Under the pieces are notes generated by a model. That model was not told the DNA's origin, did not search any database, and saw only the letters and a list, made by a program, of their open reading frames with translations. From IMG/VR virus record IMGVR_UViG_3300028840_002190: DNA of 64,000 bases. One strand, given 5' to 3'. The position numbers and the translations under genes were made by a program. Shown here piece after piece: positions 49,064-62,797 of this stretch. The stretch is from a virus. Every line of letters starts with the position of its first letter. The stretch's first letter is position 1.

Positions 49064-50080
49064 TTATGTGTTGGCTTTGATGTGGGTTGCGATTTCTTCT
49101 TTGAGCGCATGCCACGACGCCTTCTTCTCACCCCTCTTACCCTCGAGTTCCGCCTCCATTTTTCCTAACGCGGTGTAGTACTCGGGGTGCTCTTCGAGAT
49201 GATCTTTCGCGATCTCCTTAGCCATAGCAGGGTCGGGGGTGTGTTCCTTCTCGACCTCGATGCCCCGACGGAGCTGGGCTGGGGGGTACGAACTGTCAGG
49301 CTTGCCTTGAGCCTCTCCTCCCGGGATGGACTCTTTAGCCTCTTTCTCTTCCTCAGGACCGCCTTCTACGGTGTCCTCTGGTGGCTTTCCGGTAACCTGC
49401 TGGGCCGCAAGCTGATAGATCAACTCTTCCGCGGCGTGCGGACTCACTCCCCGGGATTCCGCCCACTGATGCAATTCGTAGTCCTCCGGAGTCGGGTTCT
49501 GTCGGAGGAACTCTCGCACCTGCTCCATCGTCACAGGATTTCCCTCCGCCTCCTCCTGTTCCTCTTGAGCTTCCACACCATCAAACGCAGACTTCACAGC
49601 CTCTGCCATCCGGCCAATCGGACCCTTCCCCTTACCTACCTCCACCCCACGACCCTTACCCTTGCTGCGCTTCTTCTCTCCTGGAGTTGAACACAAAGCC
49701 GCACCCATCTTGGCCTGGATGTAGTTGGCCAAGAGGTTCGACTGTGACTGCTGAGGAGTCATGGGTGCAGGCGCGGGAGCTGCAGCTTGCTGCCCTCCTC
49801 CACCTGTCGGGGTTCCCTGCGTCTGCACCTTCACAGCGTGTAGCTCTTCCGTGTGACGCATGCGCTGCTCGTGGAGTTCCTCTTTGTGACGGAGAGCCTG
49901 CTCCTGGGATTCGAGCTTGAGCTTGTGCGCCTCTTCAGCCTGAGGATCAGGCTGTTGCTCGGACTGTGGAGCAGGAGGCGTCGTCATCGGGTCAGAGCGA
50001 GGTTCTTCGTACGTGGAAGTACGGGATACGTCTTCGCTCTGTAGCGGCTCCGCTGTTTTTTCCCAGAAGTGGTAACGCAT
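49064..50080 (-). CDS. DUF5661-like domain protein with KxA motifs
   Basis: Start MRYHFWEKTA; RGIEVEKEHT...AKEIAKDHLEEHPEYYTAL DUF5661-like motif recalled from memory. Confidence 0.65.
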   Translation of the reverse strand: MRYHFWEKTAEPLQSEDVSRTSTYEEPRSDPMTTPPAPQSEQQPDPQAEEAHKLKLESQEQALRHKEELHEQRMRHTEELHAVKVQTQGTPTGGGGQQAAAPAPAPMTPQQSQSNLLANYIQAKMGAALCSTPGEKKRSKGKGRGVEVGKGKGPIGRMAEAVKSAFDGVEAQEEQEEAEGNPVTMEQVREFLRQNPTPEDYELHQWAESRGVSPHAAEELIYQLAAQQVTGKPPEDTVEGGPEEEKEAKESIPGGEAQGKPDSSYPPAQLRRGIEVEKEHTPDPAMAKEIAKDHLEEHPEYYTALGKMEAELEGKRGEKKASWHALKEEIATHIKANT

Positions 50081-50090
50081 CACGCAACTC

Positions 50091-50882
50091 CTAACGGCGG
50101 AACTTAGAAAGAACCGAATCTGCAATCTCGGAAGCTGCTTTCTGCACAGCAGGAGCTTCCACAACAGCCGACTGCTCGGGCTTCAGCTTTCCGATTCCCC
50201 AGTTGGTCCAACCCCCTTTGGTGCCTTCCAACTCTTCATCAAGTGGTGTGAATTTACCACCCCAAGGGTTCCACGCGTTCTTACCTTCGCGATGCTGTTT
50301 TTCGACGTACGCCTGATGACGTGCGGAAGCGACAGGATTTCCTCCGAGACCAAAACGGAGTGCTTTGAGAGGAGACACGACGGCATTGGATTCTGTTCGG
50401 CCACCCGAAGATCCGTGAGCGAGTGCCCCTTGCTCTTGCTGCGCTCTAGCTGCGGCAATAAGCGCGTTCTTTTTAGCCGCAGCTATATCCGCGTCAAATT
50501 GGTGACCCTTTTCCGTAACCGCGAACGCCACCTTCCGGAGAACTTCATCCGCGAGTTCAGAAGCGGTCTTCTCTTTCTTGTTCTTGGACGCCAGAGCAGC
50601 CGTAGCCGCACCTGTGCCGAGGACGCCCGCGCCGATACCAGCGGCAGCGTAGGGGCGCTTCTTAGCCATCATCTGCAATGCCCCTCGTCCAGCTTTCCCC
50701 GCAGTAGCGCCAACAGCTTCACCTACGGGAGCAGAACCGTCACCCCCGACACCCCTGGCACCCTTGGCAGCTCCACGCCCAACATCCTTGGCGACTGTAC
50801 CAACTGCCTGACCCGCGCCACGAACCTTGCTCATGACTTTCTTCGCGATCTCGCTCGCGCTCGACGCCTCTTTGCTGGACAT
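50091..50882 (-). CDS. Ala/Gly/Lys-rich protein with three ASE[IL]AxxV[LM]xK repeats and a glycine zipper
   Basis: Start MSSKEAS with AAGGAG RBS. Confidence 0.7.
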   Translation of the reverse strand: MSSKEASSASEIAKKVMSKVRGAGQAVGTVAKDVGRGAAKGARGVGGDGSAPVGEAVGATAGKAGRGALQMMAKKRPYAAAGIGAGVLGTGAATAALASKNKKEKTASELADEVLRKVAFAVTEKGHQFDADIAAAKKNALIAAARAQQEQGALAHGSSGGRTESNAVVSPLKALRFGLGGNPVASARHQAYVEKQHREGKNAWNPWGGKFTPLDEELEGTKGGWTNWGIGKLKPEQSAVVEAPAVQKAASEIADSVLSKFRR

Positions 50883-54712: not shown

Positions 54713-55327
54713 TTACAGTTTATCCATCGCGCTGCTCTTGCCTTCGGAGAACGTGGCGGTGGCACGCGTTGGTTTGAACGCACCCGATCCCTTTGCTAAG
54801 TTTCCAGCCGTGTAGCCACCCTCTCGTCCCGCAGCGCTTCGGAGAGACTTGGTGATCATGTTCGGCTGTTGAATGCCCAGAGCGAACTTGTGCATCACAT
54901 CTTCATACCCCCTGCGGAAGAACGCACTGACCTTGATGCGACTAGTGTTCGCCATTCCGGTACCCTTGAAGACCCCCATGTGCCCCGTACTAGGAGTGTT
55001 GAACGACGTGGTCGTCTTGGGGCCTTCGACAGACGAGTAACCAGAATTCGACGAAGAACTGCCACTAGTACTCTCCGCGCTCTGTTTGTCCATGTGCTTA
55101 CCTAGACGGTGTCCAAGATACGAACCTCCGATACCCGCAGAAGCGCCTAACGCCCCCCCACCGAGAACCCCCAAAAGGAGTCGCAGTTTGTCAGAAGGGA
55201 TCTTCCGCGCAATCTCAGGAGACAATCCTGCAAGCGTAGCTCCTGAAAGCGCTCCGAGGGCTCCTGGGACTGCGCCGGAACCTAACGCGTCGAGCGCGGT
55301 GTAGTCTTCAGAACTCTGCTTGGCCAT
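54713..55327 (-). CDS. Glycine-zipper protein with KQS/KVS/KFA motifs (putative internal virion protein)
   Basis: AAAGGAG RBS; GAVPGALGALSG, LGVLGGGALGASAGIGG; AFFRRGYEDVMHKFALG. Confidence 0.65.
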   Translation of the reverse strand: MAKQSSEDYTALDALGSGAVPGALGALSGATLAGLSPEIARKIPSDKLRLLLGVLGGGALGASAGIGGSYLGHRLGKHMDKQSAESTSGSSSSNSGYSSVEGPKTTTSFNTPSTGHMGVFKGTGMANTSRIKVSAFFRRGYEDVMHKFALGIQQPNMITKSLRSAAGREGGYTAGNLAKGSGAFKPTRATATFSEGKSSAMDKL

Positions 55328-55360
55328 AACGGACTCCTTTCCCCCTTGGCGTCAAGAACC

Positions 55361-56608
55361 TTACTCTTCGCCATAACCCGGCTCCACTCTTCCACCCAAC
55401 GGATGGATCTTGATGTCCCCCTTGAACGTGTGAGGGATGATTCTAGTAAATATCTCTTTCAAAGATCGAGTCGACGGCTTATACAGCGCTTTCTGCAGCT
55501 GCTTGTCCAACGCATCTTCAGCTACGTACTTGTACTCAGGATGGAGTTTCTCGAACTCCTCGATACGCTTACGGGGCGCAAAAACGTATCCCTTGCCGAT
55601 ACCGAGACGTCGAGCCGTCCCTGACTTTCGAGGAGCCACGATGGCCTCGTCTCGAATGAGATTGAGGAACGGAGAGTCCTTAGCGGTACGACTTATGGTT
55701 ACAAATCCTACATCCCCATACTCCGGATCCCGGAGCAGCCCATGCCGCGTAGCGTAAACCGTGTTCTTGAGATGTTGCCTAATTTTATCCAGGGACGCCT
55801 TAGCAGCGTCCTCGCGCCTGCCCGACTTCCCGGTCTCGAAATCCTTCAGTAATCCTCTACGGTACAGCTCTGTGGCGGGCAATGCGCCGCCTATGTCGAG
55901 AACCTCGCTGCCAGCATGTGTGCGATGACCTACTACGTCCTTACGTTTCAAGAACCGAAGTAGTCTTTGCCTATCCTCTTCCAACGTAGGATCGACCACG
56001 TAGGAGAGCTTCTCCCGCGAAAGAGTAGGCACCCCCATAACGTCTCGCATCTCACGCTTGAACCGTCGGTACCGGGTCTTTCCGAAGAGCGGAGTATCGC
56101 GCAGGAGCTTCTTTTTGGCTAAGAGTTGTGCCTTGAGCTCCGGATCCATCATAGAAACCCCGCGACGCAACTTAGTAGTGGCGTCCCGGTACTCAGCTCC
56201 AGGGCCCCCGTATGCAATAGCAAGGTCTACAGGGAAACCGCTAGCACCTGGCGTCTTCCGACTGAACACGGCGTAACCAGCCCCCGGCTTGTTGTAAGGG
56301 CTCGGTGCGAAAACTCCGGACTCGGTGAGATCCTGAAGCACTTTCCTGAACTGTTCTCGATCCTGTACGTCAGCAAAGAAGTCAATATCGACAGAGTCAG
56401 GCAAGTTGAGACCACTGTGCATTGACCCTGTAAGCTTGGGCTTTAAACCATACGCCTTTTGAAGGCGGTACGCTTCTCGGCGAATGCCTTTACGAATATC
56501 GTCAGGGTCGTACGTGTTACGCGTCTCAGGCGATACGAAAAGCCTATCGATCTTGTTCAGAAGAGAAGGCTTAGCAAGCTCACGGAGTCGGTCTTTAGAT
56601 ACGGTCAT
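55361..56608 (-). CDS. Pol-beta-superfamily nucleotidyltransferase fused to a putative ADP-ribosyltransferase domain
   Basis: G61-S62...D74-x-D76...D128 NTase triad; C-terminal H228-x-T...IGGAL, VYAT, YG, E321 ART-like pattern. Confidence 0.6.
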   Translation of the reverse strand: MTVSKDRLRELAKPSLLNKIDRLFVSPETRNTYDPDDIRKGIRREAYRLQKAYGLKPKLTGSMHSGLNLPDSVDIDFFADVQDREQFRKVLQDLTESGVFAPSPYNKPGAGYAVFSRKTPGASGFPVDLAIAYGGPGAEYRDATTKLRRGVSMMDPELKAQLLAKKKLLRDTPLFGKTRYRRFKREMRDVMGVPTLSREKLSYVVDPTLEEDRQRLLRFLKRKDVVGHRTHAGSEVLDIGGALPATELYRRGLLKDFETGKSGRREDAAKASLDKIRQHLKNTVYATRHGLLRDPEYGDVGFVTISRTAKDSPFLNLIRDEAIVAPRKSGTARRLGIGKGYVFAPRKRIEEFEKLHPEYKYVAEDALDKQLQKALYKPSTRSLKEIFTRIIPHTFKGDIKIHPLGGRVEPGYGEE

Positions 56609-57996
56609 GACAGCAGCTCCAAAAGCTCCTGATTCAGCTTACGCTTCTGCTCTGACATGTTCGCAAGAACTTGCTCTACGCCGTCAGGCTTTGCCCCGAA
56701 CGCCCGTCCAAGAAGTCCTGGACGCGGGTAAGTGAGATAGCGCTGCACCTTTACGTTACGCTGGCTAGGGGGAAGGTGCGCGTGCGATTTGTGACGGATG
56801 GCACGCCCGATGACCTGTTCCAACTTCTCTTCGTTCCAGTGTGGCTCGAGAACCTGAACCTGACGCGTACCCTTGAGATCAAGGCCTTCTCCGCCAGCCG
56901 AAGAGACTAGGAGTGCTTTGATCTTACCGGCGTTGTAGTCCTCAACTGCCTGCTGCCGTACCTTCTTTGGAACCTTCCCTGAAAAGATGGCGTGTGGAAT
57001 TTTCTTCTTGTCGAGCTCTTTAGCGTAGCCTTGGAGGGTGTCGAGGTAGTTCGAGTAGACTACCGCTTTGTGTTTAGAATTTCCCTTCACCTCAGTGGTG
57101 AGATCCTGCAATGCGCGTTCTAGCTTAGGCGTAAGACCTTCGGCTTTAAGGTCCTTCTGGAAACGCTTCATAGACCCGCTGAGTTGTCGCGTCTGAGACT
57201 GAAACTGGTTGAGCTTCGGAAGGTCCTTCTTCTCCGGTGGTAGCCCTGCTTTGAGACGCGCTCGAGATGTCCAAGGAAGCTGCTCCCACGCGAAGTTGTG
57301 GAGCTTAGTCTGCGCAGGGGACATCATGACATCGACACGCTCATCCACCCGATCCGGGAACTCGCCTCCCTGAAGATCCTGGTAGTCCACCCACTTCTGG
57401 AGGACCTTCTTCAGTTCCTTCTTGTTCATGAGTTTCGGGCGCTTCGTTGTCCACGGCATCGTCGCCCAAAAACCCTTGCCAGGCTCCTTGATGTACTTCT
57501 GCTTGAACTCTGCGTCTGTAGGGAGAACCTTATCACCTGCAGCGATGTTCACCAGCGCAGCAATATCCCCTGGACGGTTGTAAACGGGAGTCGCAGTCAA
57601 AAGGAGACGCTTCTCCGCAGGGTAATTACGGAGGAACTGGTTGATCTTGGTCTTCGTCTCTCGCGCCCGGTGAGCCTCATCAACGATTAGGAGTTTCACA
57701 GGATCCGCGTCACCACGCAGTACGGCTCGCTGTACGCTCCCGATATCGACTGGCGTCTTCTGATCTGTGTGTTTCTCCAGCTCCTTAGCGTAATTCGCAA
57801 CAAGAGCGGCGGGAACAAGAGCCTTAGCCTCGCCTTCCGCGTCGGCCACCCCGATAGACGTAAGCGTCTTACCGGTGCCGAGACCGTGAGCGACAACAAG
57901 CCCAGAAGCGTTACGCATACGGTCAAGCACCCGCTTCTGGTGCTCCATCAACTCCGTGTTGACCTTGGCGATCTTCGACTGGAGAGTAGTATCCAT
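56605..57996 (-). CDS. SNF2/SF2 helicase, poxvirus D6/D11-like
   Basis: HGLGTGKT, DEAH, LTATP, SSAGGEGLDLK, EPHWN, EQVIGRAIRHKSH. Confidence 0.85.
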   Translation of the reverse strand: MDTTLQSKIAKVNTELMEHQKRVLDRMRNASGLVVAHGLGTGKTLTSIGVADAEGEAKALVPAALVANYAKELEKHTDQKTPVDIGSVQRAVLRGDADPVKLLIVDEAHRARETKTKINQFLRNYPAEKRLLLTATPVYNRPGDIAALVNIAAGDKVLPTDAEFKQKYIKEPGKGFWATMPWTTKRPKLMNKKELKKVLQKWVDYQDLQGGEFPDRVDERVDVMMSPAQTKLHNFAWEQLPWTSRARLKAGLPPEKKDLPKLNQFQSQTRQLSGSMKRFQKDLKAEGLTPKLERALQDLTTEVKGNSKHKAVVYSNYLDTLQGYAKELDKKKIPHAIFSGKVPKKVRQQAVEDYNAGKIKALLVSSAGGEGLDLKGTRQVQVLEPHWNEEKLEQVIGRAIRHKSHAHLPPSQRNVKVQRYLTYPRPGLLGRAFGAKPDGVEQVLANMSEQKRKLNQELLELLS

Positions 57997-58811
57997 CAGC
58001 CCGCTTCCGTCGAAGTGAAATAGCGGTGCGGAGAATTACGGATCGTATCCGCCAAATCTAACTGGGAATCGCTGCCGTCAAGAGCTTTCCACCCCTTGTC
58101 CCCATAGCCTTTCATTTCCCCTTCCAGGAGTTCCAAAAGTTTCTCTTTAGACAGGTAACCCTTTCCCGTAGGGGAGTCCGTAAAACCTTCGTGCTCGCTT
58201 CCCCCTACGAGCTGAGGAACACCTACATACTTATCAAACCACCCCAACTCCTGACCCTTGAACGGATCAGCGGAGAAGTCATAAGTATCTCCCGGGTAGG
58301 GGTGTTCGGCTTCGTACTTATCGTAGAACTCTCGGCGCTTCTGCCGATGAGCGTTATACGCGTCCCTCTCTCGAGGGTCTACCGACCCCTTAGCGCCACC
58401 TCCACGCGTCAACGACCCGATCTGTGCGCCACCCAGGCCCCCTGTCAACAGTCCGATAGCGCCCCCGGTAGCTGCTCGGGATAAGGGGCGCCCCTTGAGG
58501 GCAGCCAGACCGACTCCCGCACCTAACAACCCTCCTAAACCCGAGCCGATGAGCGCACCTTTACGTACTGCAGGATGCGTTACACGCAGACTCGGGACTT
58601 TCATCGTACCCACCGCCTCGTCCGCAGCAGCTTCGCGATCCTTCTCGTAGGAATACAGGGCCTTCTCGGCCTGTAGCGCCTTTTGTCGTTCCTGCTGGAA
58701 GGTGTCCAGGTCGTCGAAACCTACGATATTCTGCCAGTACCCTGCGGTCTTATCGAGGCCGAAACCCCTCAAAACGGAAGCTATACCTTGCGCGTATGGA
58801 ACGTTTCTCAT
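57996..58811 (-). CDS. Glycine-zipper protein with leader ending DKTA (putative internal virion protein)
   Basis: GGAGG RBS; MRNVPYAQGIASVLRGFGLDKTAG; two GxxxG tracts. Confidence 0.7.
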   Translation of the reverse strand: MRNVPYAQGIASVLRGFGLDKTAGYWQNIVGFDDLDTFQQERQKALQAEKALYSYEKDREAAADEAVGTMKVPSLRVTHPAVRKGALIGSGLGGLLGAGVGLAALKGRPLSRAATGGAIGLLTGGLGGAQIGSLTRGGGAKGSVDPRERDAYNAHRQKRREFYDKYEAEHPYPGDTYDFSADPFKGQELGWFDKYVGVPQLVGGSEHEGFTDSPTGKGYLSKEKLLELLEGEMKGYGDKGWKALDGSDSQLDLADTIRNSPHRYFTSTEAG

Positions 58812-58834
58812 CCTGGTCCTCCAAGATTTACTAA

Positions 58835-58844
58835 GTAAATATAC
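58835..58844 (-). promoter_or_regulatory. GTATATTTAC -10-like element
   Basis: Between the terminator and the RBS of 58811. Confidence 0.4.
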
Positions 58845-58856
58845 GACGAACTCGAA

Positions 58857-58889
58857 GCAAAAGAAATGCCCTCGGAGAGAAGGCATTTC
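58857..58889 (-). terminator. Intrinsic terminator
   Basis: GAAATGCC/GGCATTTC stem then TTTTG on the minus strand, after the lipoprotein stop. Confidence 0.65.
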
Positions 58890-58897
58890 CAGGAACG

Positions 58898-59701
58898 TCA
58901 CGGCTCGAGACAAGCGTGGTAATCAGGATCGCAGTAGTAACCGTCGGGGCAGGTGGACTGGTAGTCGCAGCCGGTGGTGGCGCAAACCTGGCCGATGTAG
59001 GAGGAAACGCAAGTAGCGTCAGAAATCGTCTCTTCACAGAGGAGAGGGTTCGACTCGCAACTCGTAGTGGCGGACATGCTGAAACAGAGGCCCTCCGGAA
59101 GCACCGATGAGCACTCACCATTGTTGTACCCCTCGAACGTCTCACAGGGGACCGGCATACAGAACTCCGCGCAGTACTTGTCACCGGGGTCGGGATACCC
59201 GATCACGCACGTGTTGCCGTCGTCACAGACGTCGCCTTCGCAGCAGGGTTCGTCGGGGGAGCCGCAGTAGTCGTCTGTATCCAATCCTGAATCAGTGCCA
59301 GCATCACTTCCAGTGTCAGTATCCCCCACACTGTCAGTGCCAACATCGGTGTCGGCGTCAGTATCTGCGTCACTGTCAGCATCAGAATCAGCGTCACTGT
59401 CAGCATCAGAATCAGCGTCAGAATCAGCGTCAGCGTCAGTATCCGTGTCTGCATCTGCGTCACCCTCACCTGTGTCCTCCTCCGTACCTGTATCCGCGTC
59501 CGCATCCGTGTCGGCGTCGGCATCAGCGTCGGTGTCAGTGTCTACGTCGCTATCTCCGCCATCAGAGATAGGTTCTCCGGTGTCATCCACGTAACTCGTG
59601 TCACCTCCCCCTCCATCCGCGTCTTCGAACGTGTAGTCCCCCATCATCAGCGAACAACCGCTGACGAGGAACATGCCCAGAACCAGTACCAACGTCTTCA
59701 T
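58898..59701 (-). CDS. Lipoprotein with Asp/Ala/Thr/Ser repeat linker and Cys-rich C-terminal domain
   Basis: GGAGG RBS; MKTLVLVLGMFLVSGC lipobox; DTDADAD/DSDAD repeats; about 16 Cys in the C-terminal domain. Confidence 0.8.
   Translation of the reverse strand: MKTLVLVLGMFLVSGCSLMMGDYTFEDADGGGGDTSYVDDTGEPISDGGDSDVDTDTDADADADTDADADTGTEEDTGEGDADADTDTDADADSDADSDADSDADSDADSDADTDADTDVGTDSVGDTDTGSDAGTDSGLDTDDYCGSPDEPCCEGDVCDDGNTCVIGYPDPGDKYCAEFCMPVPCETFEGYNNGECSSVLPEGLCFSMSATTSCESNPLLCEETISDATCVSSYIGQVCATTGCDYQSTCPDGYYCDPDYHACLEP
59340..59560. repeat. Low-complexity hexamer repeats encoding D-x dipeptides, including a perfect 24-bp tandem duplication
   Basis: GTCACTGTCAGCATCAGAATCAGC at 59369-59392 and 59393-59416. 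Confidence 0.85.
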
Positions 59702-59819
59702 GGCTGTCCTCCAGTTGAAAAGTGTAGCAGACCTTTTCCGTACACACTTACTTGTACCGGGTTTGTAGAGGCGTTTCTGGAAGCCAAAAAGACGCCGGGG
59801 GAGGCGTCTAGAAGGGAGA

Positions 59820-60107
59820 TCAGTCGTCAAACTCCTCGATGAATTCTACGTGAGTGTCGACGTCCAAGACGACGCTCTTGAGGTCTTTCACTCGGAACAC
59901 AGCACCCTGAACAGAGTGGGCGTGGGAACAGGCACAATTTCCAACACCGTCAGGGAGGTCGAGAGCGTCAACGGTGTCCATGTCCTGGTTGGAAGTCAGG
60001 AACTCCGACACATCACGCATGTTGTTAAACGTATCGACACTGAGGTCCTGTCCGCATATCACCAAGAACTGCTCATTCTTCTTAACTTGTTTTTTCGCTT
60101 TAGCCAT
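59820..60107 (-). CDS. Hypothetical protein
   Basis: 95 aa, coupled start/stop overlap. Confidence 0.55.
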   Translation of the reverse strand: MAKAKKQVKKNEQFLVICGQDLSVDTFNNMRDVSEFLTSNQDMDTVDALDLPDGVGNCACSHAHSVQGAVFRVKDLKSVVLDVDTHVEFIEEFDD

Positions 60108-61859: not shown

Positions 61860-62343
61860 CAGAATTGTCTCCTAGGTCCACAATTGTGACCCTGTCAGGG
61901 GCGATGGGGATATTGACATCGAACACAATTTCCCCACCTGGTTTTACGGTAGTACTTGTTATTCCCGGGGACGGTAACGAATTGTCACTTAAGAAATGTT
62001 CTAGTTGTCTCTGTACTGCGCCCTTGACCCTCTCCTTGGTCTCATTAGCAAAAACCTCCATGAGAGAACCCTCGATAGGATAAGGGTCTTCAAGACCTAA
62101 TGGAGGATCTGGGAGAGGCATCCAGTACTCCACAGGTATCGCCCCCGTATGGTACATGTGCATATCAAGCTCAAATGTGTCAGATGCACTAACATACGTC
62201 ATCAGCAAATACCCAGGCCACACCAAACACCGCTGCCCGTCCTCAGGCCGCTGGTCAACGAATTTGATCCAGAGGTTATCCTGCTCTTCGTAGTCGTCAG
62301 CGCAGTCCCAGTCTACGTTCGACCCATCCTCTTGTTTCGTCAT
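61843..62343 (-). CDS. DUF551-like domain protein
   Basis: WIKFVDQRPEDGQRCLVW...EYWMPLPDPP. Confidence 0.65.
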   Translation of the reverse strand: MTKQEDGSNVDWDCADDYEEQDNLWIKFVDQRPEDGQRCLVWPGYLLMTYVSASDTFELDMHMYHTGAIPVEYWMPLPDPPLGLEDPYPIEGSLMEVFANETKERVKGAVQRQLEHFLSDNSLPSPGITSTTVKPGGEIVFDVNIPIAPDRVTIVDLGDNSDGNDS

Positions 62344-62797
62344 GAAGCAACATCTTTCCTTTGTGCTTCTTATACCACGCTTTAACTCCGTTAGGACCCT
62401 CTAAACCCCCGTGTCCTTGTGCCCGAGAAGCACCGAACCAGTCGGCTACCATCTCTCTACGCGCGGCATCAGACATCGGTAGTACCTTCCGCCCTCCACC
62501 GTCCGTCGGGAGTACCCACCACTGCCAATGGTGGTCGTTACGCTTCTGGTGCAACAACCACGCGAAGTCGAAAAGTGCATTCCCCGTGTCTGTTGGTTTG
62601 TAGTAACCAGTCTCGTCACGAACCTGCTTGGCCTTCTTCCCGTAAAAGAAGTCCGTATACGGGAACCATTCAGAAGGCAAAAACTTACTGGAGTCGTGTA
62701 CTAGGCCTCTAAAATAGAGCCCCTCCCGGAAGCACGCCTGCGCCACGTAGAGCTTGTGACGCAGAACGTACTTCAGATAGTTAACGTGCTTACCCAT
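62297..62797 (-). CDS. DUF5662-like HD-superfamily protein
   Basis: RHKLYV, VHDSSKF, HQKRNDHHWQWW, EMVADW. Confidence 0.7.
   Translation of the reverse strand: MGKHVNYLKYVLRHKLYVAQACFREGLYFRGLVHDSSKFLPSEWFPYTDFFYGKKAKQVRDETGYYKPTDTGNALFDFAWLLHQKRNDHHWQWWVLPTDGGGRKVLPMSDAARREMVADWFGASRAQGHGGLEGPNGVKAWYKKHKGKMLLHDETRGWVERRLGLR

Follow-up and report, generated by a model that had tools for sequence, protein, structure and literature searches.

DarT-type ADP-ribosyltransferases (ARTs) are so far known mainly as bacterial anti-phage weapons. The polyvalent proteins described by Iyer et al. (2017, PMC5512222) carry unrelated enzymatic domains in one polypeptide; among them SNF2 is paired with a DNA-modifying enzyme in the DarB-type SNF2-DNA methylase dyad, Pol-beta nucleotidyltransferases (NTases) occur only in proteins of conjugative elements, fused to ArdC-N, and the ARTs belong to the H-Y-D (Tox-ART-HYD2) clade. 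Here we analysed a window of 64,000 nucleotides (the whole stretch of DNA studied) from IMG/VR virus record IMGVR_UViG_3300028840_002190, and in it the gene for P0001, an open reading frame (ORF) of 415 amino acids (aa) with an ATG start (55361..56608, from the ORF list and translation; every window gene and domain given by coordinates below lies on the minus strand). P0001 likewise joins two unrelated enzymatic domains, a minimal NTase (N-domain) and an ART-like C-domain. The source is an uncultured large phage: P0001 is encoded by a 179-kb contig, and the window carries a ribonucleotide reductase, a baseplate wedge gene and tail genes. Both superfamilies, ART and NTase, are known, as are phage effectors of the polyvalent type; the pairing itself is new, and no published description of such an NTase-ART pair was found in the literature.

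All structural statements refer to models predicted with AlphaFold2 and compared by Foldseek. The full-length P0001 model has a predicted local distance difference test (pLDDT) score of 91.3 and gave 22 Foldseek matches at E ≤ 1e-3, of which those listed are proteins of the Pol-beta NTase fold, including a CoaE-GrpB domain, class I CCA-adding enzymes, Cid1/TUT7, CdnE and cGAS. The N-domain (residues about 30-195, 56024..56521) shares its core alpha-beta fold with the solved Pol-beta NTases; in the model it comprises about 165 residues, with a helical lid of 60 residues, and ends near residue 195. The Pol-beta signature noticed in the original prediction, GS-x11-DID with a distal aspartate in PVDLAI, lies at G61-S62-x11-D74-I-D76 (56381..56428) and at D128, the third catalytic carboxylate (56225..56227), within model strand 127-133. 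Conservation was counted over a set of 85 family proteins. G61 is kept in 73/73, S62 in 71/73, D74 in 74/76 and D76 in 75/76, at least 97% each and in agreement with the pattern hG[GS]-x9-13-Dh[DE]h, and D128 is kept in 72/76, so that the aspartates, on whose conservation in homologs the original prediction was to stand or fall, are retained. The lid residues K166 (74/76) and K184 (71/74) are also kept. P0001 as a query has no Pfam, PHROG or PDB-sequence match, but in the Pfam and PADLOC scans, which covered 48 relatives, 14 of the 48 match PF01909 (best E 7.8e-10) and six match DUF4269. The GrpB-like lid proposed earlier holds as a structural resemblance in Foldseek and fails at the level of sequence, P0001 having no match to PF04229 (GrpB), which is also missing from the 25 most frequently hit families of the 48 relatives. 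A two-lobed identity of the CD-NTase (cGAS/DncV-like NTase), OAS (oligoadenylate synthase) and cGAS kind (about 300 aa) was rejected, since the large helical C-lobe is absent from the N-domain model. On this model the N-domain reads as a GrpB-like minimal Pol-beta NTase, which should transfer a nucleoside monophosphate from a nucleoside triphosphate (NTP) to a hydroxyl with release of pyrophosphate (PPi).

The C-domain, folded alone with 48 aligned sequences, has a pLDDT of 90 and a predicted template modelling (pTM) score of 0.84. When it was compared with 48,161 representative chains, the top 50 were almost all ARTs (best E 0.034). Closest are the nucleic-acid ARTs DarT1, DarT2 and Tpt1 (PDB 8baq, 7omv, 7yk3, 7yw4), and the rest include Rhs ART toxins, Scabin, PARP1/2/3/4/10/13/15/16, tankyrases, enterotoxins, pertussis toxin, Arr and pierisin; DarT1 was recovered independently with the full-length P0001 model. 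The predicted model shows the split beta-sheet of the ART fold, the feature whose absence was to count decisively against the original prediction, in a compact core of residues 221-345 (55574..55948). The motif order read there from the letters, H-x-T followed by VYAT, YG and a late glutamate, is found in the canonical order at H228-R-T230, V-Y285-A-T287, Y297-G298 and E321. H228 (64/64), R229 (53/64) and T230 (63/64) lie at the end of strand 1 (model strand 225-230; 55919..55927), where they are predicted to contact NAD+. F/Y285 (63/66) and T287 (56/67) lie on the next core strand (284-288), and Y297 and G298 (64/65 each) follow in the next turn, twelve residues past F/Y285, to give a Y-x10-Y-like aromatic pair (55715..55756). 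E321, the predicted catalytic glutamate, is kept in 64/65 and opens strand 5 (321-324; 55646..55648); an invariant glutamate is typical of canonical transferases. The core is followed by a conserved alpha/beta C-terminal extension (residues 346-403, 55400..55573), for which conservation is P345 61/65, P357 58/64 and R389 50/54. The pLDDT is high until about residue 400 and then falls below 50, residues 404-415 being disordered.

The H-Y-E-type assignment, tentative when first made, has thus gained an ART fold in the model and a triad on the expected strands. We read the C-domain, on the strength of this model, as a new compact H-F/Y-E ART family whose shape is closest to DarT and Tpt1, and it should use NAD+ for ADP-ribose transfer. 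No sequence profile links the C-domain to any described ART family in Pfam, PHROGs, PADLOC, the PDB profile search or a profile search of 5.8 billion proteins: a profile of the C-domain only (A4) gave chance matches among PDB sequences (E ≥ 0.4) and returned family members and no annotated ART from the 5.8 billion, and the PADLOC families listed include neither DarT nor another ART. Structure matches of the C-domain in BFVD are weak. Two other readings of its KDxxGHRT motif were rejected, a HEPN Rx4-6H motif (R222 is present in only 36/59 relatives) and a 2H phosphoesterase (there is a single conserved HxT).

The two domains form an obligate pair. A word-based search returned 10 relatives of P0001, and 79 came from scanning 1.84 billion cluster representatives exhaustively with HMMER; all are metagenomic, from uncultured phages, and only two IMG/VR contigs carry a relative. 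Among 185,579 prokaryote species, each represented by one genome, no relative was found, tblastn of P0001 against 50,697 GenBank phage records and a search of the ESM Atlas gave nothing, and a word-based search for larger fusion proteins with the C-domain was likewise negative. Profile searches within the 85 family proteins identified 45 two-domain proteins in the NTase-ART order and 13 in the ART-NTase order, the remainder being single-domain proteins, many of them fragments. For the reverse-order proteins the assignment relies on a profile iterated on a small set, and xHxT...YG motifs kept in the right order back it. Of the 58 two-domain proteins, 57 have both active sites intact. The sole exception, P0049, has lost NTase residues (S62A, D74N, D128S) together with ART residues (F285D, Y297K, E321K). 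Lasting pairing in both orders, together with joint decay, argues for one function shared by the two activities. Some relatives have insertions of 200-300 residues between the domains, one of which includes a glycine zipper.

P0001 is made from an operon shared with a SNF2 ATPase. The gene order in the window is a glycine-zipper protein, SNF2, NTase-ART and a Gly/Ala-rich protein, with the glycine-zipper gene first in the apparent operon. The ATG of P0001 overlaps the TGA of the upstream gene (tcATGA, a 4-nt ATGA overlap) and a GGAG lies about 10 nt 5' of the start, from which we take the SNF2 and P0001 genes to be translationally coupled. The SNF2-family ATPase (463 aa, 56605..57996) matches Pfam SNF2-rel_dom and Helicase_C as well as phrog_62 (E 2e-46). 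The glycine-zipper protein (305 aa, 57996..58913) matches Gly-zipper_YMGG weakly (E 0.038), and a glycine-zipper gene stands at the same place in contig L001. The downstream Gly/Ala-rich ORF (204 aa, 54713..55327) has no family match in Pfam or PHROGs, and its ortholog follows the P0003 gene in contig L012.

Association with SNF2 recurs across the family. At least six proteins (P0037, P0038, P0039, P0042, P0043 and P0046) have SNF2 fused with the module, on either side, and orthologs of the window SNF2 (58, 51, 44 and 28% identity) adjoin NTase-ART genes in the four contigs L001, L003, L011 and L009. The neighbour in L011 is a 1,119-aa protein with SNF2, a LigD 3'-phosphoesterase, a ligase-like domain and a P-loop kinase, that in L009 has LigD_N and SNF2, and that in L006 has Nudix and a zincin-like region (E 0.0021); Nudix adjoins P0018. 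Further fused domains are InPase, a pyrophosphatase (P0025, P0037), Peptidase_C39 (P0039, P0043, P0046) and KTSC (P0064), described as DNA-binding (PMC9503650), and the largest relatives reach 2,622 aa. The InPase and Nudix partners fit PPi release and NAD/ADP-ribose chemistry. Both domains of P0001 are strongly basic (isoelectric point about 9.9-10). The closest relative on a long contig, P0003 (673 aa, 75% identical), is encoded by L012, which is syntenic with the window at 47-64 kb; it has an N-terminal extension with a glycine zipper and an HExxH in a weak zincin-like region (E 0.022). In L001 the SNF2/NTase-ART cluster lies between phage RNA polymerase (RNAP) genes.

Several further observations concern these loci. 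In L001 (1-9473) a 2,296-aa fused RNAP beta/beta' gene is interrupted by an intein and LAGLIDADG domains, and the stretch from it to the beta' C-terminal gene holds the SNF2, DUF5662, glycine-zipper and NTase-ART genes. The DUF5662 gene is a conserved companion: it is directly 3' of SNF2 in L001, has a 75% ortholog in L012 and stands near SNF2 in the window (62297-62797, Pfam E 6.8e-40). Another window protein (49064-50164) has a C-terminal DUF5661 domain (E 3e-11) and an ortholog at the syntenic position of L012. Comparison of L012 7589-10650 with window 54713-59830 marks this spot as a recent cargo indel. The gene of P0049 (L011 6001-10534) overlaps that of the 1,119-aa protein, a single polypeptide that holds a set for healing and sealing ends. 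On the phage-like contig L003 (13341-13500 and beyond) a Ro60/TROVE-vWA protein, a marker of RNA quality control or repair, lies about 6 kb from P0007. The reverse-order ART-NTase protein P0059 (344 aa, L008 4182-6035) directly follows a Phage_tail_APC gene and so lies inside a tail gene block. A different pairing is seen on the P0085 contig, possibly a cellular genome, where the gene for a stand-alone ART-like domain (214 aa, H-T-F-Y-E intact; 968-1612) overlaps a gene with two PLD domains (1609-2790).

What we observed comprises the predicted folds, the catalytic residues, the domain pairing and the associations of genes and domains; substrates, chemistry, timing and virion delivery are what we infer from these. 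The reading we favour, and to which we give about an even chance, is that P0001 would be a bifunctional effector with two catalytically competent domains, acting early in infection to modify nucleic acid. The ART would take ADP-ribose from NAD+ and attach it to a base or to a terminal phosphate, and the same substrate would receive one or more nucleotides from the NTase. Where a SNF2 motor is present, it would provide access or translocation, a role modelled on the SNF2-methylase dyad of DarB-type polyvalent proteins. This reading draws on the intact active sites, the obligate pairing, the basic domains, the likeness of the C-domain to ARTs of nucleic acids and the partners that act as motors, process ends or clear PPi or ADP-ribose. 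DNA, of phage or host, is a slightly likelier substrate than RNA; RNA-end chemistry would fit the RNAP neighbourhoods of SNF2 orthologs and the resemblance to Tpt1. Several points weigh against the favoured reading. The SNF2 gene is not obligatory, L012 being without it (and without the glycine-zipper gene) despite its synteny, and the position of SNF2 orthologs beside phage RNAP genes fits a role in transcription or on RNA, or RNAP as the target, equally well. Protein modification is also common for minimal NTases and H-Y-E ARTs. Finally, the F/Y285-E321 spacing is much shorter than that between Y71 and E160 of DarT2 (residue positions from PMC11543638), so that the long DNA-binding ARTT loop of DarT is absent.

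A protein target is the strongest of the alternatives. In host takeover or anti-defence of this kind the ART would modify host RNAP or a defence protein and the NTase would AMPylate or otherwise nucleotidylate a protein hydroxyl, which we consider unlikely, though with a real chance of being right. Enzymes with such activities are known: T4 Alt and ModA ADP-ribosylate RNAP, AcrIF11 ADP-ribosylates a defence protein, and MntA-type minimal NTases modify protein hydroxyls. The H-Y-E type ARTs of polyvalent proteins are predicted to modify host proteins (PMC5512222) and their minimal NTases to nucleotidylate proteins, a phage ART acting on a CRISPR protein is known (PMC12421852), and the genes of partner-SNF2 orthologs beside those of phage RNAP subunits would suit a polymerase target. 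The recurrent LigD phosphoesterase, ligase, kinase, KTSC and SNF2 partners, however, act on nucleic acids, and a protein target leaves the constant co-travel of NTase and ART, and their joint loss in P0049, unexplained.

A more specific form of the nucleic-acid reading, which we rate as improbable, is a new coupled reaction. The ART would ADP-ribosylate phage nucleic acid, as a base mark or a terminal-phosphate cap, and the NTase would extend a hydroxyl of the ADP-ribose or the 3' end of the polymer, or would build an NAD-primed oligonucleotide donor for use by the ART. The composite nucleotide-ADP-ribose mark might then shield injected DNA or early phage-RNAP transcripts from host nucleases, with SNF2 coupling the reaction to DNA entry or transcription. 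If true, bacterial viruses would here have their own counterpart of cap-and-tail protection.

Chemistry on small molecules appears similarly doubtful. Here the module would produce, degrade or imitate immune signals, either NAD+-derived or oligonucleotide, to counter Thoeris or CBASS (the anti-phage signalling system based on cyclic oligonucleotides), or would rebuild or alter NAD+, the ART fold serving as an NADase or as an ADP-ribose transferase to a small acceptor and the NTase as a nucleotide-condensing enzyme. Strict pairing of an NTP-using with an NAD+-using domain would suit such a two-step synthesis, and the InPase and Nudix partners suit nucleotide metabolism. A family profile has a weak match to a CD-NTase chain (E 0.025), and the PADLOC model for CBASS cyclases is matched weakly by 3 of the 48 relatives (E 8.7e-5), but the 165-residue NTase is without the large helical C-lobe of CD-NTases and OAS. 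A soluble-metabolite enzyme would hardly be expected to be coupled to SNF2, ligase, phosphoesterase and kinase, and the strongly basic surfaces of both domains point to polyanion binding. That the C-domain is no working ART, only sharing a strand arrangement or serving as a non-catalytic NAD- or nucleotide-binding or scaffold module beside an NTase that alone is enzymatic, is very improbable, because, although no sequence profile ties it to an ART family, its best Foldseek E value is 0.034 and its BFVD matches are weak, its top 50 chains come almost entirely from one superfamily, DarT1 was recovered independently, the H, F/Y, Y and E residues are at least 95% conserved in canonical order on canonical strands, and these residues were lost only in P0049, where NTase residues were lost as well.

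Delivery of P0001 in the virion is plausible on indirect evidence. The window SNF2 has a 36%-identical ortholog, Gp217, in Salmonella phage Arash, encoded directly after an RNAP subunit gene. Gp217 was detected in purified virions by liquid chromatography-mass spectrometry, in a permissive list of 116 proteins that includes ribonucleotide reductases (PMC10585845). A 38% ortholog of the window SNF2 adjoins capsid genes in Pseudanabaena phage PA-SR01, and the window SNF2 itself (56605-57996; ortholog context L013 5001-6395) may be a factor of virion RNAP. Profile searches of the regions around the SNF2 orthologs in Arash and PA-SR01 gave no NTase or ART homolog. The possible cleavage site between the domains, taken as REKLS, finds no support. 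REKLS is residues 198-202, in the inter-domain linker (residues 196-204, 55997..56023; pLDDT about 82-84), which is conserved in close relatives only: residues 194-204 can be aligned only in some 21 of them, and long insertions occupy this place in other members of the family. The motif K-x-[A/S/G] occurs 8 times in P0001 against 7.5 expected from composition and was therefore rejected as a cleavage signal, and the window operon contains no processing peptidase.

The analysis defines an ART family that current annotation libraries have overlooked. About 60 proteins of uncultured phages have this ART locked, in both orders, to a minimal NTase, which implies an uncharacterised two-step chemistry, and the active-site mutations D74A/D76A in the NTase and H228A and E321A in the ART provide a direct experimental handle.

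Each half of P0001 resembles a described protein in shape and departs from it otherwise. GrpB/UPF0157 (PDB 2nrk; CoaE C-terminal domain, 6n39) is like the N-domain in structure only, and as we found no paper giving GrpB a biochemical function, the match names a shape and not an activity. Of Tpt1/KptA (PDB 7yw4) only the NAD+ lobe (chain residues 108-230) aligns to the C-domain; the N-terminal RNA lobe has no counterpart here, and the NTase domain precedes the ART core instead. DarT1 and DarT2 (PF14487) have the closest ART shape, but none of the 48 relatives has a PF14487 or PADLOC DarT match, and no DarG macro or NADAR partner was matched among the 14 neighbouring window ORFs scanned, more distant genes lying outside that scan. 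The region from the aromatic residue to the glutamate is about 50 residues longer in DarT than in the C-domain (36 residues, F/Y285-E321), where the single-stranded-DNA-binding ARTT loop is absent. The C-domain is accordingly not a member of the DarT family, as judged from the missing profile match, the missing DarG/NADAR partner and the much shorter segment at the DNA-binding loop; moreover, DarT is the toxin of a toxin-antitoxin pair, whereas the C-domain is phage-encoded and fused to an NTase. A phage-borne relative of DarT would reverse the picture of DarT as a bacterial weapon. AbiG offers a possible analogy, as AbiGi may be ART-like and AbiGii an NTase. A 2026 review gives no structural hits for either AbiG protein (PMC13064643), and AbiG families are not among the Pfam and PADLOC families listed for the relatives.

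T4 Alt, put forward earlier as a precedent for a packaged, processed and injected ART, is a poor one at the family level, since Alt belongs to the R-S-E clade (PMC5512222) and the C-domain is of H-Y-E type with an NTase, a partner that Alt is without. Both Alt and P0001 are phage proteins with an ART whose presumed action falls at the onset of infection, and Alt remains a useful functional precedent for delivery. A further parallel is with the polyvalent proteins. P0001 itself has two domains only, and the polyvalent style appears in its relatives, where the module is joined with SNF2, InPase, C39 or zincin-like peptidases, KTSC and glycine zippers. Compared with the proteins described by Iyer et al., the family has a different NTase and an H-F/Y-E ART, held as a fixed pair and encoded by phages. 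The NTase-ART pair beside SNF2 stands where DNA methylases stand in the DarB-type anti-restriction proteins, and from this position it may be a new phage way to mark or protect nucleic acid, or to attack that of the host.

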